Positions 18,636 to 62,529 of a stretch of DNA of 64,000 nt are shown piece after piece (position 1 is the stretch's first letter; every line of letters begins with the position of its first letter). The stretch is from Sphyrna mokarran (taxonomy: Eukaryota). The notes under the pieces were generated by a model. That model saw only the letters and a list, made by a program, of their open reading frames with translations, had not been told where the DNA came from and made no database searches. The stretch spans positions 34,100,001 through 34,164,000 of the forward strand of contig JAGIQG010000021.1 of the NCBI GenBank assembly GCA_024679065.1, given 5' to 3'. The translations under genes were made by a program, and so were the position numbers.

Positions 18636-19105
18636 GCTGCCATCTCTAAGGGGTTGATTGTCCCATTCTCCTTGCTCTGTCCCCACCCAGGGGCTATCTG
18701 TCTCATTCTCTCAGGTCTGTCTCCACTCTGGAGATGTCTATCTGTCCCATTCCCCTGGGTCTGTCCCCACCCAGGAGATGCGTGTCTCTTTCTGTCCCCG
18801 GGTCTGTGACTGTCCCCTCGCTGTCAGCCAATCAGGAGTTAGAATGGAGCCGGCAGCCAAGGGCCGATTCCAATCCCAAGACCAGCAGTTTCAGGCTGGA
18901 TTTTTACCCAGGGACAGTGGGTGTCCCCCGGGGCCGGCTAGAAAGGCCAGGCTGGAACTCCATTCGCTCCAGAGCCCGCCTCCGGGTTAAGGCCGGCAGT
19001 CAGAGACAAGGCGCCGGCCGCTGACAGAGGACGTGGCAGCTCCAGGTAGCGGGAGTCACGCGCGTTCACACAAGGGCGGGAAGAGTAAGTGATCCAGGTA
19101 CCTAC

Positions 19106-19250
19106 CTATACATTGCCGACACGAAACCGCTGCTGCTACCGCCGTTAACCGCTCCGCACCGTCACCGTCATCCTCACCACCCCTCACGACCACTAGCCTC
19201 GCCAACAGCACCACTTCCGGCCTGCGTCTCACTTCCGGTCCCAGCTTCAT
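19106..19250 (-). other. NDEL1: Probable non-coding exon 1 of NDEL1 (5' end approximate)
   Basis: Strong donor TATAG|GTAGGT at 19106/19105 on the minus strand, inside the CpG island and just downstream of the ETS pair. Confidence 0.6.
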
Positions 19251-19499
19251 TGGCCTGCAAAGCGGTGCGCGCAGGCGCAGAGACGGACCACGCCCTCTCT
19301 GACATCACCGTTCGAAACGTCACCCACACCGCCCCGCCCTCTCACCACCTCTCTGACGTCACCCCCATCTGTGCCGGTCGTCACGCCCCCTTGCGCCAGC
19401 GGGGTGGTGTGCGCAGGCGCAGAGGCGGAGCACGGCTTTTCTGACATCAGCGCTCATTAACATCACCCGTCCCGCCCCTTCACTGTGCCAATGGCACAC

Positions 19500-19647
19500 T
19501 CAGTAATAGTCTGGCAACACCAATTTGCCTGACGAAGACGAAAGTCGAAAGCTCGCAGATTTACTATCAAATAAATCGGTTGGATTTAAAATTGGTGTTG
19601 CCGGACTGTTACTGAGTTTACCTCAGTCCAACGCTGGCATCTCTACA
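19500..19647 (+). mobile_element. Fold-back Penelope-like pLTR mini-element (family A) inserted in the NDEL1 promoter
   Basis: 12-bp TSD ccaatggcacac at 19488-19499 and 19648-19659; inverted arms 19500-19526 and 19589-19615. Confidence 0.8.
19522..19561 (+). ncRNA. Minimal type I hammerhead ribozyme with an intact core
   Basis: aatttgc-CTGACGA-a-gac(gaaa)gtc-GAAA-gc-TC-gcagatt: 7-bp stem I, GNRA-capped stem II, palindromic AGCT stem III, predicted cleavage after C19554. Confidence 0.8.
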
Positions 19648-19811
19648 CCAATGGCACACCCCACTGACATCCCACCAATCTGTGTCACCTGCGGAGCGGT
19701 GCGCGCAGGCGCAGAGGCGGGCCGCGCCCTTTGACGTCACCACGCGATGGGGTCTTCTGCCCCCCGTCCCCTCATTGTGCCACAGTATCATTCCCCATCA
19801 CAAGTCCCTTC

Positions 19812-20434
19812 TCATATGGTGTACTGGCCTTCATTAATCGAGGGATTGAGTTTAGGAGTCGGGAAGTAATGCTACAACTTTATAAGCCCCTTGTCAGACC
19901 TCACTTGGAGTACTGTGTGCAGTTCTGGTCACCTCACTATAGGAAGGATGTGGAATCTATTGAGAGGGTGCAGAGGGGATTCACAAGGATGTTACCTGGA
20001 TTGGGAGCCATGCCTTACGAAGATAGGTTGAGGGAGCTAGGTCTCTTCTCGCTGGAGGAACGAAGGTTGAGAGGGGACCTGATAGAGGTTTATAAGATGC
20101 TGAGAGGAATAGATAGAGTGGATTCTTGGAGGCTATTTCCCAGGGCTGAAATGGTCGCTACGAGAGGACACAGATTTAAGGTGCTAGGGGGCAAGTACAG
20201 AGGAGATGTTAAAGGCAAGTTTTTCACTCAGAGGGTGGTGACTAAATGGAATCGACTGCCGTCAGTGGTGGTAGAGGTGAACTCGCTGGGGTCTTTTAAG
20301 AGACTTCTGGATGAGTACATGGGATTTAATTGGATTGGGAGTTACAGATAATTCTATGGCCTGGGAGGTACTAATATGATTAGCACAACTTGTGGGCCGA
20401 AGGGCCTGTGTGTGCTGTAGTGTTCTATGTTCTA
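19812..20434 (+). mobile_element. 5'-truncated CR1 LINE
   Basis: Open frame YGVLAFINRGIEFRS...LYKPLVRPHLEYCVQFWSPHY...LRGDLIEVYK; gttctatgttcta tail. Confidence 0.92.
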
Positions 20435-20574
20435 AGTTCTTAGATCACTGGCTACACCCATATGTGTTTGATCTGCCCTCGATGTTTAATAATAAATCAT
20501 TATTCATGAAACATTAATCACTCTGAAGCTGACCAGTGTTTTCCATTGAATAACTGGCCAAAACACCCTGCTTA

Positions 20575-20720
20575 CTGTCACCCCATTCACCTGACAAAGG
20601 GACAGTGTTCCCAAAGCTAGTGGCATTTGCTACCAAATAAACCCCTTGGACTTTAACCTGGTATTGTGAGACTTCTTACAGTGCTCACCTCAGTCCAATA
20701 CTGGCATCTCCACATCATGA
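20575..20720 (+). mobile_element. Penelope-like pLTR (family A) with a degenerate hammerhead
   Basis: tcac-CTGACAA-agggacagtgttcc-CAAA-gc-TA-gtgg followed by ccaaataaacc..ttggactttaacctggt...gcatctccacatcatg. Confidence 0.7.
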
Positions 20721-38519: not shown

Positions 38520-38725
38520 TAACTCCTTAAAACTTTTTAATAATGCTATATTAAGCTGAATTTTCTGTACACCTTAGCTGTGACTATGACATTATAATCA
38601 GCACCTTCTCCTTTCCTTCTCTTCTATACTATGGTATAGTTTATCTGTATAGCGCACAAGAAACACTACTTTTCACTGTATCCCAATACATATGACAATC
38701 GTAAATGAAATGAAATTGAAATGAA
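38520..38725 (+). mobile_element. Rex1/Babar 3' UTR
   Basis: Homologous to 25700-25870; its pentamer tail continues after the CR1 at 39857-39880. Confidence 0.7.
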
Positions 38726-39856
38726 GTCTTGCCCATGGAAGACTTCTACAGAAAATGCAGATGTGTGGAATAGAGGGTGATTTAGCTAATTGGATTAGAA
38801 ATTGGCTGGCAGATAGAAGACAGAGGGTGGTGGTTGATGGGAGATATTCATCGTGGAGTTCGGTGACGAGTGGTGTGCCTCAGGGGTCTGTTTTGGGGCC
38901 CCTGCTGTTTGTAATTTTTATAAATGATCTGGATGAGGGTATTGAGGGATGGATCAGTAAATTTGCAGATGATACTAAAGTTGGTGGTGTGGTAGATAGT
39001 GAAGAGGGGTGTTTTAGTTTACAGAGTGACTTGGACAAGTTGCAGAGCTGGGCCGAGAGGTGGCAAATGGAGTTTAATGTGGAAAAGTGTGAGGTAATGC
39101 ACTTTGGCAGGAACAATAAATGTGTAGAGTATAGGGCTAATGGTAGGGCTCTTAATAGTGTTGAGGAACAGAAGGATCTTGGTGTATGTGTCAATAGATC
39201 CCTGAAAGTAGGCAGTCAAGTGGATAAAGTTGTTAAGAAGGCATATGGAGTCTTAGCTTTTATTGGTAGGGGGATTGAATTTAGGAGCCGCAGCATCATG
39301 TTGCAACTGTACAAAACTCTAGTGCGGCCGCACTTGGAGTATTGTGTGCAGTTCTGGTCGCCACATTATAAGAAAGATGTGGAGGCATTGGAGAGGGTAC
39401 AGAGGAGGTTTACCAGGATGTTGCCTGGTATGGAGGGCAGGTCCTATGAAGAGAGGTTGAAGGATTTGAGGTTGTTTTCGTTAGAAAGGAGGCGGCTAAG
39501 GGGGGATCTTATTGAAACATATAAGATAATTAGAGGTTTGGATAGGGTGGACAGTGATAGCCTTTTTCCTAGGATGGAAAAAGCTAGCACGAGGGGACAC
39601 AACTTTAAATTAAGGGGTATGAGTTATAGGACGGATATCAGAGGTAGGTTCTTTACTCAAAGAGTGATTAGGGAGTGGAATGCCCTGCCTGCAGCTGTTG
39701 TAGATGCGCCAAGTTTGGTGGCGTTTAAGAGGTTAGTTGATAAGTATATGGATGAGAAGGGAATGGTTTAGTTAGGAGGGGCATTGCTTTTTATTTTGGT
39801 CGGCACAACATCGAAGGCCGAAGGGCCTGTTCTGTGCTGTATTGTTCTATGTTCTA
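38726..39856 (+). mobile_element. Young 5'-truncated CR1 LINE with an uninterrupted 338-aa RT C-terminal frame (38755-39771)
   Basis: SGVPQGSVLGPLLF, KFADDTK, WQMEFNVEKC, LVRPHLEYCVQFWSP; TSD tgaaatgaa at 38717-38725 and 39857-39865. Confidence 0.95.
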
Positions 39857-44894: not shown

Positions 44895-45022
44895 TCTTTA
44901 TTTGGAATTACAAGCTTCCAGAGCACTGGTCCTTCAGAAGGACTCATGCAGTGCTCTGAAAGCTCATGATTCCAAATAAACCTGTTGGACTTTAACCTGG
45001 TGTTGTGAGACTTCTTACCATT
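44895..45022 (+). mobile_element. Fold-back Penelope-like pLTR (family A), hammerhead 5' core lost at the inversion junction
   Basis: tttatttggaatta.aagctt.cagagcactg is inverted against cagtgctctgaaagctcatgattccaaataaa; followed by cctgttggactttaacctggtgttgtgagac. Confidence 0.7.
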
Positions 45023-49655: not shown

Positions 49656-49811
49656 TGAACTATCACACTTCCAAACAGAATGTAAATTTTTGTAATATTA
49701 TCTCTACAAGTTCTTTTACAACAAGACTATTAATTAACCTTTTTCATGACAGAATACTAGATCTAACATAGCTCTCTCAAACATATTGATCTAGAAAACC
49801 ATTCCTAATGC

Positions 49812-52342
49812 AGTACAATACCAGCAGCAGCTCCAACACCAGCAGCAGCGCCAACACCAGCAGCAGTGCCAATACCAGCAGCAGCTCCAATACCAGCAGC
49901 TCCACCAGCAGCAGCTCCAACACCAGCAGCTGCAATACCAGATGCTCCAACACCACCAGATGCTCCAACACCAGCAATAGCTCCAACACCAGCAATAGCT
50001 CCAACACCAGCACCTCCAACACCAGCAACAGCTCCAACACCAGCAGCAACTCCAACACCAGCTGCTCCAACACCAGCAGCAGCCCCAACACCAGCTGCTC
50101 CAACACCAGCAGCAGCCCAACACAGCAGCTCCAACACCAGCAGCTCCAACACCAGCAGCTCTAATACCAAAGGCAACTCCAACACCAGCAGCAACTCCAG
50201 CACCAGCTGCTCCAACATCAGCAGTAGCTCCAACACCAGCAGCTCCAACATCAGCAGCAGCTCCAACACTAGCAGTTCCAACAACACAAGCAGCTGCTCC
50301 AACACAAGCAGCGGTTCCAACATCAGCAAATCCAACACCAGCAGCTCCAACATCACCAGCAGCTCCAGCATCAGCAGCAGCTCCTGCACCAGCAACTCCA
50401 ACACAGCAGTTGTAACACCTGCAGCAGTCCCAACACTAGCAGCAGCTCCAACTGCAGCAGCAGCTCTAACTGCAGCAGCGCCAACACTAGCAGTAGCTCC
50501 AACACCAGCAGCTCCAACATCAGCAGCAGCTCCACCACCAGCAGCTACAAAATCAGTAGCAGCTCCAATATCAGCAGTTCCAACAACACCAGCCACAGCT
50601 CCAATACAAGCAGTGGTTCCAACACCAGTTGTTCCAACACCAGCAGCAGCTCCAACACCAGCAGCTCTAACACTGGCAGCAGCTCCAACACCAGCAGCTC
50701 CAACAACATCAGCAGCAGCTCCAACACCAGCAGCGGCACCAACACCAGCAGCTCCAACACCAACAGCAGCTCCAGCACCAGCAGCAGCGCCAACACCAGC
50801 AGCAGCTCCACCAGCAGCAGCTCCAACACCAGCAGCTGCAACACCAGCAGCAGCTCCAACACCAGCAGCAGCTCCAACATCAGCAGCAGCTCCATCACCA
50901 GCAGCTGCAACACCAGATGCTCCAACACCACCAGCAACTCCAACACCAGAGGCTCCAACATCAGCAGCAGCTCCAACACCAGCAACAGCTCCAACACCAG
51001 CAGCAACTCCAACACCAGCTGCTCCAACACCAGCAGCAGCCCCAACACCAGCAGCTCCAACACCAGCAGCAACTCCAACACTAGCAGCAACTCCAACACC
51101 AGCTGCTTCAACATCAACACCAGCTCCAACACCAGCAGCTCCAACATCAGCAGCAGCTCCAACACCAGCAGTTCCAACAACACAAGCAGCTGCTCCAACA
51201 CAAGCAGCGGTTCCAACATCAGCAAATCCAACACCAGCAGCTCCAACATCAGCAGCAGCTCCAACACCAGCAGTTCCAACAACACAAGCAGCTGCTCCAA
51301 CACAAGCAGCGGTTCCAACATCAGCAAATCCAACACCAGCAGCTCCAACATCACCAGCTCCAGCATCAGCAGCAGCTCCTGCACCAGCAACTCCAACACC
51401 AGCAGTTGTAACACATGCAGCAGTCCCAACACCTGCAGTAGCTCCAATAGCAGTAGCTGCAACACCAGATGCTCCAACACCACCAGCAGCTCCAACATCA
51501 GCAGCAGCTCCAACACCAGCAGCTCCAACATCAGCAGCAGCTCCAATATCAGCAGTTCCAACAACACCAGCCACAGCTCCAATACAAGCAGTGGTTCCAG
51601 CACCAGTTGTTCCAACACCAGCAGCAGCTCCAACACCAGCAGCTCCAACACCAGCAGCTCCAACACCAGCAGCTCCAGAACTAGCAGCAGCTCCAACACC
51701 AGCAGTTCCAACAACATCAGCAGCAGCTCCAACACAAGCAGTGGTTCCAACATCAGATGCTCCAACACCAGCAGCTCCAACACCAGCAGCAGTTCCAACA
51801 GCAGCGGTTCAAACACCAACAGCAGCAACACCTGCAACAGTTCCAACACTAGCAGCAGCTCCAACATCAGCAGCAGCTCCAACAGCAGCAGCACCAACAC
51901 CAGCAGCTGCTCCAATACCAGCAGCTCTCCAATACCAGCAGCGCCAACACCAGCAGCTATAAAATCATCAGCTCCAACACCAGCTGCTCCAACACCAGCA
52001 GCTCCAGCACCACCAGCAGTGCCTGCACCAGCAGCTCTAACACCAGCAGCAGCTCCAACAACAGCAGTTCCAACACCAACAGCTGCAACACCTCCAGCAG
52101 TTCCAACATCAGCATCAACTCCAACACCAGCAGCAGCTCCAACATCAACAGCAGTTCCAATAGTAGCAGCTCCAACGTCAACAGCAGTTCCAACACCAGC
52201 AGCAGCTTAAACACCAGCAGCTGCTCGAACACCAACTGCTCCAACACCAGCAGCTCCATCATCAGCAGCTGCTCCAAAGCCAGCAGCTCCATCAGGAGCA
52301 GCACAGCTATAGCACAGCTACACAACACCAGCAGCAACAGCC
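49812..52342. repeat. 2.5-kb minisatellite of 15/18-bp units (CAGCAGCTCCAACAC / CAGCAGCAGCTCCAACAC) with higher-order duplications
   Basis: Directly visible; produces long low-complexity ORFs in several frames on both strands. Confidence 0.95.
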
Positions 52343-52384
52343 AATTCTTGACAGGCGAACTGGTTGAGCATAGAACTCCAGCTT

Positions 52385-52930
52385 TCAGGAGGTGAGCCTT
52401 CTAACACAGACTTTTCAGAGGATTAACTTCCGGGACATGACCAGCTGCTGCGAAACACATGGCTTAGGCTTTCCTATTTGGTAATCTCAAGTATTTGCAA
52501 CCTCTAGAATAAGACTTCTTGCCAAATGTATTGGGGTGGGCACATATGCTAGTGGTGTCACAGTCACTTCACCTCTTAATCTTCCTGCCTCTGATTCCTT
52601 CCTGGGATCTTCTGGTGGATATTTGCAAAATACTGCAATCTGCTGCTCACGGATGACTAATGACATGATTGTCAGGACTGGGGACTAGCTGCATTTCTCA
52701 GCCAGGTAGATCAAGCTGTCTCCCATCTGGGGGTGAAGGTGACCCAAATCAGCCCAGTGTCTTTTTTAACAGGAAAGGATTCCACTTCCATCAATGTTCA
52801 GCTCATTTGTAATCACGGAAAGATCATCACGACTGTAGGTGAACGATCCTTTGGGAGCTGTGATGCTTTCATCCCCCCAGCATCAGTCATGCCTCCCCGA
52901 GATAACACACTTCTAAACAGACTTAGTGAA
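52385..52930 (+). pseudogene. PIF/Harbinger transposase remnant (HARBI1-like DDE)
   Basis: FNRKGFH/SINVQLICNH...GSC.DAFI at 52765-52875 (one frameshift); upstream SF.GSSG.DICKI.QSAAH-like segment at about 52585-52650. Confidence 0.7.
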
Positions 52931-54721: not shown

Positions 54722-54885
54722 CCATGTAGAGTTGCCGGATTTGGACTGAGGTAGGCACCATAACTGGTCTTACAACACCAAGTTAAATTCCAACAGGTTT
54801 ATTTGGTAGCACGAGTTTTCAGAGTGTTGTTCCTTCATCAGGTGAGTTACCAAATAAACCTGTTGGATTTTAACCTGGTGTTGTG
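54722..54885 (-). mobile_element. Fold-back Penelope-like pLTR (family A) with a hammerhead in the loop
   Basis: Arms 54773-54808 and 54848-54883; minus strand reads cac-CTGATGA-aggaacaacactct-GAAA-ac-TC-gtg at 54844-54810. Confidence 0.75.
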
Positions 54886-60722: not shown

Positions 60723-61965
60723 GTCTTCAATCAGACTGAGCCCTCTTTCTAAAGCTGGCTAGATTCACACACCAGTGTCTGGTATCTTTTTTGTGGTCAC
60801 TTTTAACCACAAAAGGTGAGCGGAATTCAGTATCACAATTCACCTCAAGGTTTGGCATGGTTCAGTGGTGGCATTTGAACCCACACCCTCTGGGTTGCTG
60901 CTGGGCCATAACAATACAGGCCACTGTACCCTCCCGTCATTGAAATGAAATCTTGTCAATTAATAGCAGTCTCTGTGCTACGTATTCTGGTCGCTGCTTC
61001 AACTTTTCCCCTGTCAGAATTGCAGCCAAGCTGGCATCAGTTCCAACAGATTTCACAATGTTAGATCCACTTCTTTTTTGAGACTTCACAACTTTTTTTT
61101 TAAAAAGGTAAAAGTTCTGCTTGCTCCTTTCAAAATGACTTTTAAAACCTCAACACGAGGGTGACTGACAGAAGTGTGGATTGCGTTGCCAGTCTGTGTT
61201 GGAGGAGTGACGCTGAGGGATCTACTTTCCCGGCTGAGAAAGTGCGGTAAAACGGTCAGGAAATCAGTACTCCCTCACTTCATATGTTGCAACCACAGGG
61301 AACCGGACCGTGAGCTGTTACCGTAACACTGACGGGAAGATCTGAACTGTCACAGAGAGACCAAGTTTTGCTCTGATATCCTTTCTCTCCCAACGGCACT
61401 GGATGGGGACAACCACAAATGTTTGGCAAGTCAAAGACAGTTTCACATTTCAGCGTTGAAATAATAACATTTGTCAGACCCAAAACCAGAACAGGGCATT
61501 TGACTCATTCTGCCGCGGCTCAGTGGAAAAAGGACAGTGGGAAACAAAAGGTCAAGAGCTGTTGAATTCGTCTGATGTGAGGTTATTTTTGTTCTTGTTT
61601 TAGTCGCAGTTCGGGCTCTACACAGTACGGTATGTGCTAGATTCCAGCACACTTCCTCAAACAGAGAGAGAGAAGAAAAAGCTTTCACTCCGGAGAGGTG
61701 GGTGAAAATGGGCTGGTGGCTGAACAAGTTGAAGCAGCCCGCGGTTCTCATCAGCTGCCAGCGGCCAGGCGAAGCCCAACCAGCTAAGCAGGGAGTCCGG
61801 AGTGGGGTAGGCAGTAACATCCCAGGAGTGGAGTCCTGACAAAGAGTCTCAAACCAAGTCCGGATCTCTGGGTGGGGATTTTCAAACACCCCCCCCACCC
61901 CACCCACTCTCTCTCTCCCCCGGGGAGAGTGGGGCTAGAGAACCCCCCGGGGAGGGGGGAAAAGG

Positions 61966-62529
61966 ATGTCGGAGGAGGGAGGCTGCGAGTGCCCGGTCTG
62001 CTACGAGAGGGTGTCTCGCCAGAACCAGTCGCTGAGGACACTGAGCTGCAACCACATCTTCTGCCACGACTGCCTGGTCAAGACGGTGCTCAATCAGGAC
62101 AGCGAGCCCAACAAGTTGGTGTGCCCGGTCTGCAGGCACGTCACCTTCCTGAGCAGGAGAGGGGTGCTGTGGAGCGCCCGCGGCAGAGAGGGCAAGCAGA
62201 CGCTGGAGATCCCGCTGCCTCCCCCTGCTGCCCCGGAGCTTCCCCGTGCCGCCGCTCCTCCGCGCTCCTTCCTCCACCGCCTGCTGGCCAGCTGCCCCTG
62301 GACTCTGGGCTCCGCCCGCCGGCCGGCGCCGGCCCCCCGCCAGGTATTCGTGATCAGCGGCCGGGGCCGACCCATGAGCGAGGAGGAGCTGCGAGGCGCG
62401 CCCGGCGAGGACGGGCTGGTGCTGGAGCACCGGCGCTGCAGGCTGCGCTGGGTGCTGGTGCTGCTCTGCTTCATCATCATCGGGGCAGTGGTGGCTGCCA
62501 TCCTGCCCTGGGTCACCTCCTTCAGATAA
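61966..62529 (+). CDS. RNF222: RING finger protein 222 (RING-HC E3 ligase with a C-terminal membrane anchor), single coding exon
   Basis: ECPVCYE..RTLSCNHIFCHDCLVK...LVCPVCRHVTFLS, QTLEIP, QVFVISGRGRP and TM ...AVVAAILPWV all parallel human RNF222; GC-rich; divergent from NDEL1 as in human. Confidence 0.93.
   Translation: MSEEGGCECPVCYERVSRQNQSLRTLSCNHIFCHDCLVKTVLNQDSEPNKLVCPVCRHVTFLSRRGVLWSARGREGKQTLEIPLPPPAAPELPRAAAPPRSFLHRLLASCPWTLGSARRPAPAPRQVFVISGRGRPMSEEELRGAPGEDGLVLEHRRCRLRWVLVLLCFIIIGAVVAAILPWVTSFR

Follow-up and report, generated by a model that had tools for sequence, protein, structure and literature searches.

Penelope-like retrotransposons are known to leave an inverted 5'-truncated copy and a one-sided tail of 30-40 bp at their insertion sites (PMC8557442), and the tail has been traced to reverse transcription that starts at two internal sites (PMC11167929). 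The minimal hammerhead ribozymes (min-HHR) of metazoan Penelope-like elements (PLE) are of type I, lack helix III and loop 3 and occur mostly as single dispersed copies, and an extra base and a palindrome are listed as traits of the family (PMC4209133). A single min-HHR from S. mansoni yielded no detectable cleavage, with low activity in dimers and trimers (PMC4209133), and a review gives very low rates even for dimers (PMC6765202). The hammerhead of an anole PLE cleaved only in the presence of the element's protein and was dispensable for insertion in vitro, and RNA-seq ends at the site were not found (PMC11167929). Within the available portions of PMC4209133 and PMC11167929, cleavage by such motifs in vivo is not reported.

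Hammerheads of the retroelement type have also been found beside host genes in amniotes, in introns of RECK, CTCL and DTNB and in the Clec2 3' UTR, where they are conserved across species and thought to be domesticated (PMC6155905). Retrozymes, which are non-autonomous, have tandem or LTR-flanked hammerheads, two or more on the same strand, that bound a unit-length RNA. Dimer cleavage by minimal variants has reportedly been described by Lunse et al. 2016 (listed in PMC6765202). Our literature search found no paper on Penelope hammerheads of sharks; sharks are not named in the text consulted of PMC4209133, the supplements of which may list shark motifs.

Here we analysed an insert in the promoter of NDEL1 in Sphyrna mokarran, located within a stretch of 64,000 nucleotides (the window). 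We estimate at about 0.85 the probability that a young Penelope-like retrotransposon left it as a short insertion, truncated and inverted at the 5' end, and that it is a passive passenger, the single hammerhead of which cleaves poorly or not at all.

Anatomy and origin of the insert

The first-pass annotation had described a 148-bp insert with a perfect 12-bp target-site duplication, and both proved exact. The insert spans positions 19500-19647 and is flanked on the + strand by exact repeats of CCAATGGCACAC at 19488-19499 on the left and 19648-19659 on the right. Excision of the insert together with one duplicate leaves a 132-bp unit that can be aligned with the 142-bp first unit of the host promoter, which marks it as a true insertion. 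The alternative that the right duplication is element sequence was ruled out since the sequence beyond this point differs in the sister copies and the empty site can be aligned with promoter unit 1.

The main part of the insert (19523-19647, + strand) is the last 125 bp of a Penelope-like pseudo-LTR or 5' leader, with a 3' limit just before the ATG of the element. It is 89% identical to both terminal repeats of a full-length copy, L061, and 95-98% identical to the closest stubs. The final 30 bp (19618-19647, + strand) correspond to the Penelope tail described in PMC8557442 and PMC11167929 and are present in the direct arm only. The left end (19500-19526, - strand) is an inverted, truncated copy of the terminal repeat, namely the reverse complement of 19589-19615 with 2 differences, and had been missed in the first-pass annotation. 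This inverted arm is 27-29 bp long, being extendable to 19498 via 2 bp in common with the duplication, and it ends about 30 bp short of the element end while the direct arm reaches it. Because of the inversion, the insert is predicted to fold into a long hairpin (-55.7 kcal/mol, z -6.2 in the folding computation).

The parent element was traced through two same-strand matches 3.03 kb apart, which belong to L061. This copy has 715-bp direct repeats that lie 3.03 kb apart, are 93.5% identical and contain the hammerhead motif in each, and its ORF starts just past the point that matches the 3' end of the insert. A second full-length copy, L062, is 93% identical to L061 over 3.2 kb; the ORFs are broken in both. 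A search against Pfam identified a C-terminal GIY-YIG domain (PF01541; 25.4 bits, above the cut-off of 22.6) and, upstream of the nuclease, a fragment resembling RVT_1 (E 2.8e-5; 24.3 bits, below the cut-off of 29.6). Judged from sequence, these comparisons identify the insert as the end of a terminal repeat that belongs to a 3-kb Penelope-like retrotransposon with a predicted reverse transcriptase followed by GIY-YIG.

The translation of the parent has two cysteines between GIY and YIG and a CX4CxxC linker in the segment 2852-3400 of L061. A CX2-5CxxC linker is a trait of Neptune and Nematis and is absent in Penelope and Poseidon (PMC8557442), and the linker and the cysteines together point to an EN+ Penelope-like parent of Neptune or Nematis type. 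L061 resembles the Neptune-type elements in its reverse transcriptase, its linker and its C-terminal GIY-YIG with two inner cysteines, and the NDEL1 insert resembles their insertion units in the 5' truncation, the 5' inverted copy, the 30-bp one-sided tail, the target duplication and the hammerhead in the pseudo-LTR (PMC8557442; PMC11167929). It differs from these units only in the unusually short inverted arm (27-29 bp) and in its site in a CpG-island promoter, and the short arm is also present in three other sampled copies (L002, L020 and L030) with a nearly identical inversion.

The geometry is common in the family. Among 79 loci we found 44 distinct head-to-head pairs, the insert at NDEL1 included. 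One arm reached the element end and the other stopped 26-42 bp short of it in 33 of the 44 pairs, and 21 of those 33 had duplications of 11-14 bp. We infer that staggered nicks 12 bp apart were made in the target by the nuclease of the element, that reverse transcription from the repeat end copied 125 nt and halted just past the ribozyme, and that a second priming event about 30 nt further in gave rise to the inverted 27-29 bp.

At loci that include L004, L021, L023, L024, L034, L040, L042 and L097, several arms begin at reference positions 605-619, near the predicted cut (C17 = 607), and many other arms have their first base at 548-580, a short way upstream of the motif. Such positions could correspond to the cut site and to the RNA start, with the proviso that BLAST ends are fuzzy.

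Several other repeats were observed in the window. At 683-838 is a head-to-head stub of a closely related subfamily with a short flanking duplication and without the core, both arms of which are cut at or just before the cleavage-site region. Older or different Penelope-type remnants are located at 20580-20714, 44900-45005 and 54725-54883, and in the last of these a CUGAUGA core, on the minus strand at 54841, is accompanied by a mismatched stem II. Open frames similar to the 3' end of LINE reverse transcriptases, presumably of CR1 type, are found at 19770-20350 and 38725-39768; the first begins about 20 bp past the third promoter module and had no match in Pfam. A long low-complexity array at about 49800-52400 has a strong strand skew (CAG/CCA-type) and open frames on the minus strand.

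The hammerhead motif and its predicted folding

A complete hammerhead core had been claimed for the + strand, and all of its elements are present. The motif, a predicted ribozyme of minimal type I (19522-19561, + strand), fits by its sequence the description of min-HHR in PMC4209133. In stem I, positions 19522-19528 pair with 19555-19561 (7 bp, one G-U), one pair more than the 6 that would form without the insertion junction. The core consists of CUGACGA (19529-19535), an extra A (19536) and GAAA (19547-19550), so that the CUGANGA, GAAA and UH signatures occur together with stems I and II. Stem II (19537-19546) has 3 bp and a GAAA loop, and stem III is the palindromic AGCU at 19550-19553, without a loop. 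The UC site is U19553-C19554, with the predicted cut after C19554. Shared with the min-HHR of metazoan Penelope-like elements are the type I layout, the absence of helix III and loop 3, the palindrome at 15.2-16.2, the extra nucleotide between 9 and 10.1, the G10.1-C11.1 pair (here G19537-C19546) and the mostly single, dispersed copies, whereas stem II is 7-8 bp in S. mansoni versus 3 bp at NDEL1 (PMC4209133).

The Rfam scan proposed in the first-pass annotation returned no hammerhead in the window, either at the gathering score, where there was no match at all, or at E up to 10, where there were seven non-hammerhead matches, mostly to miRNA models. A miRNA reading was ruled out, as the miRNA models fit the insert hairpin.

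The monomer has no stable stem III, only four nucleotides without a loop that would form an AGCU duplex of about -2.5 kcal/mol, and a second ribozyme would therefore be needed for cleavage. The motif and the parent element thus bear out the suggestion that this is a Penelope-type minimal hammerhead that would need a dimer. In the parents, the tandem repeats, probably with the help of the element's protein, would let two motifs share stem III. At NDEL1, a loose scan of the + strand for CUGANGA...GAAA revealed no second intact motif of the family nearby, the nearest matches being unrelated sequence, and the nearest family remnant, at about 20580-20714, reads CUGACAA where CUGANGA would be expected.

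When folded in isolation (19515-19570), the motif is predicted to form stems I and II, with probabilities for stem I of about 0.95-1.0. Within the whole insert, the hairpin displaces the outer pairs of stem I (p 0.06-0.36) at a cost of 2.2 kcal/mol. The context of the parent is no better for stem I (p 0.02-0.15), and the inversion can therefore not be said to disable the ribozyme; we dropped the hairpin as an off-switch from the main argument for this reason. From the analysis of stem III and from the published activities, the lone motif at NDEL1 is likely to cleave RNA poorly or not at all.

The first-pass annotation had suggested a cis device for ending divergent transcripts. In this explanation, the divergent RNA of NDEL1 self-cleaves at C19554, alone, through trans pairing with RNA of other copies or with the help of the element's protein, and the host uses the cut for ending or processing the transcript. 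All core nucleotides are indeed intact, and the motif faces away from NDEL1, with 313 nt between C19554 and the most distant 5' end observed for exon 1 (19241). Set against this are the loopless stem III with its weak AGCU duplex, the lack of an intact partner nearby and the inactivity published for the monomer (PMC4209133), and we consider such a use of the motif very improbable.

Compared with the domesticated hammerheads of amniotes, with which it shares the retroelement type and the position beside a host gene, the motif belongs to a young subfamily of hundreds of copies rather than to a set conserved across species, and it has neither a stable stem III nor a match in Rfam (PMC6155905). 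It does not qualify as a retrozyme, having one hammerhead and being derived from an autonomous PLE.

Copy number and decay of the motif in the family

A search of the genome gave 1,855 candidates, 40 of which were scored, with identities of 89-100%. To count the motif we used sequence patterns, for which both arms of an inverted insert are counted separately. The 26-nt core had 227 exact matches in the genome versus 0 for the reversed control, and the motif is hence not a chance occurrence. With all four CpGs, a 34-nt core matched 160 times (159 of them elsewhere); with the CpG places left free it matched 809 times in the subfamily, and the 29-mer just downstream of the core matched 9,903 times genome-wide, with reversed controls of 0 in each case. 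The 159 identical cores elsewhere, among which the NDEL1 copy shows no sign of extra conservation, speak further against a use of the ribozyme by the host.

The NDEL1 copy had been said to keep CpGs that its sisters have lost. This is correct in relation to the four other sites in the window, which are 76-88% identical and truncated or from other subfamilies, but it does not hold genome-wide, where 160 of the 809 matches keep all four core CpGs.

To quantify the divergence of the NDEL1 copy, we compared it with 60 other full 125-bp copies, chosen for likeness or for an intact core. It has 4 differences from the majority sequence, as compared with a median of 3 among the 60, and two of these are common variants. 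None of the 4 is inside the 40-nt motif (P=0.28), in a subfamily that is too young for this comparison to have power. One of the seven majority CpGs is missing and one has been gained. The motif was unchanged in 25 of the 60 other copies, a fraction that is not the rate for the family because of the way in which the copies were picked. The CpG o/e of the flanks was 0-0.54, and none of these 25 copies had an island-like downstream flank. Protection from methylation is thus not needed to account for an intact core, contrary to the fallback explanation that an unmethylated island had preserved it; such a core is standard for the family and has persisted because of the young age of the subfamily.

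At the CpG of the cleavage site (equivalent to 19554; L002-L081) we observed C to T in 16 of the 60 copies and G to A in 4, and an imbalance of equal type was seen at 19635 (16 versus 3). The excess of C to T at the cleavage site is more suggestive of a source element carrying U17 than of decay.

We also examined the wider family, using the first 30 matches of the downstream 29-mer, 22 of which had a recognisable core; two of the 30 rows resemble a duplicated segment. An intact core was scored in 9 of the 30, five of them with C17, and G8 was changed to A in 9 of the 22. The extra A was present in all 22, and stem II kept 3-5 pairs in 20 of the 22 despite variation in both length and sequence, with 18 different sequences for stem II and loop II in the 22 copies (L083-L112) between flanks that are nearly identical. 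This looks like compensatory change between subfamilies within one genome. That pairing was kept across subfamilies suggests selection on the ribozyme in active elements rather than in single inserts, and the motif at NDEL1 would have been shaped by such selection in its active parents. Cores have often decayed in the wider family, and one that sits intact in an unmethylated island may therefore outlast most others, which gives the earlier remark on CpGs some truth; hundreds of young copies are nevertheless intact.

With 9,903 matches in the family, landing sites close to promoters are to be expected. Assuming 20,000 promoters, about 70 of the 9,903 would be located within 500 bp of a promoter by chance, as would 1.2 of the intact cores (160 x 20,000 x 1 kb / 2.77 Gb). 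About one intact copy beside some promoter is thus expected by chance, which again weighs against a device for ending transcripts.

The NDEL1 promoter and its divergent RNA

The insert is located inside a CpG island upstream of NDEL1 exon 1, as claimed in the first-pass annotation. The island has an o/e of 0.97-0.98 and is the one clear island of the window. The claimed position among NRF1/CRE modules was also confirmed, with motifs that we take to be NRF1-like at 19269, 19411 and 19703, accompanied by what are presumably CRE or CRE-like sites. They belong to three head-to-tail modules of the host promoter (19253-19747, without assigned strand), which start at 19253, 19395 and 19687. Module 2 is interrupted by the insert and module 3 has been shifted by 160 bp, with a change in spacing from 132 to 292. 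Considered as a whole, the promoter (19253-19800) consists of three degenerate copies of a unit of 130-140 bp, every one of which has an NRF1-like and a CRE-like site, and two ETS-like sites were observed at 19212 and 19230.

The non-coding exon 1 of NDEL1 (19106-19241, - strand) has its 5' end at or beyond 19241 and a predicted donor after 19106. Two 2-kb contigs of related organisms, from runs guessed to be RNA, fit from 19194 and 19241 down to 19104 and then diverge; the predicted donor together with a next exon (2717) that starts with GT would explain why the fit ends at 19104. The first coding exon (2620-2717, - strand) has its ATG at 2705 and encodes a 29-residue start, for which the only match in PDB was NDEL1 (2v71), a weak one (E 0.07). 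Between exon 1 and the two relatives there are 6 differences in 91 bases and 8 in 138, compared with a divergence of 2-3% between the insert and its source, and the insert is on this basis probably restricted to a recent lineage.

The contigs of four runs, again guessed to be RNA, included exon 1 and repeat contigs, and none extended over 19270-19491 or the insert junctions, so that they provide no evidence on expression. Contigs matching the repeat family were plentiful in these runs, which counts in favour of the self-cleavage explanation. A single-exon ORF for a RING-finger protein with a hydrophobic C-terminus (61939-62526, + strand) is located head-to-head with NDEL1 and is probably RNF222, the neighbour of NDEL1 in human. 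We also considered the + strand as pre-mRNA of this RING gene; contigs at 61939 run upstream of the ATG, and no joint or loose end maps to the island.

A different effect on the promoter could arise without catalysis. The element-borne AATAAA (19570-19575, + strand) is the first AATAAA or ATTAAA on the + strand after 19200, the next being at 20491, so the insert supplies the first such hexamer on the divergent strand, followed by a GU-rich stretch. The long hairpin would form in RNA of either strand, and the third NRF1/CRE module has been pushed 160 bp away. A small effect by way of the hexamer, the hairpin or the shifted module, unselected or weakly selected, is conceivable on these grounds, and poly(A) signals have been proposed as one means of terminating antisense RNA (PMC11230626). 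Yet the AATAAA is part of the pattern that was counted, hence present in each of the 9,903 matches and a family trait; it would lie inside the hairpin, and antisense termination mostly does not depend on poly(A) signals (PMC11230626). We regard such an effect as unlikely, albeit more plausible than a working ribozyme device, and the AATAAA is the likelier route to any effect on the promoter.

Integrator is chiefly responsible for the termination of antisense RNA in human cells, with a part played by poly(A) signals (PMC11230626). With one motif and a loopless stem III, divergent RNA that crosses the insert would most likely be ended by the ordinary Integrator, polyadenylation and exosome routes and not by self-cleavage. 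That hammerheads are thought to have been domesticated in amniote introns and Clec2 3' UTRs (PMC6155905) is a precedent for recruitment by the host, but the divergent RNA is already short-lived (PMC11230626). A device that ends divergent transcripts is thus unsupported, given a core that is the family default, shows no sign of extra conservation and has neither a tandem partner nor a loop on stem III. Among the matches listed in our literature check, which was not exhaustive, no paper described ribozymes that end divergent transcription.

One specific form of cleavage may still be formulated, in which the fresh Penelope hammerhead cuts the upstream-antisense RNA of NDEL1 at C19554 once RNA or protein from active elements licenses it in trans; we give it very little credence. 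If true, it would tie the turnover of promoter RNA to retrotransposon activity and would represent ribozyme domestication at its first step. Cleavage of the divergent RNA in vivo, if it occurs, would be a case of a metazoan minimal hammerhead that acts on the RNA of a host gene and would show a path from a retroelement ribozyme to a regulatory part of the host. If the insert is passive, as we believe, it matters little for NDEL1, being one more stub among about ten thousand family matches, although the inversion, tail and duplication typical of Penelope are cleanly displayed in it.
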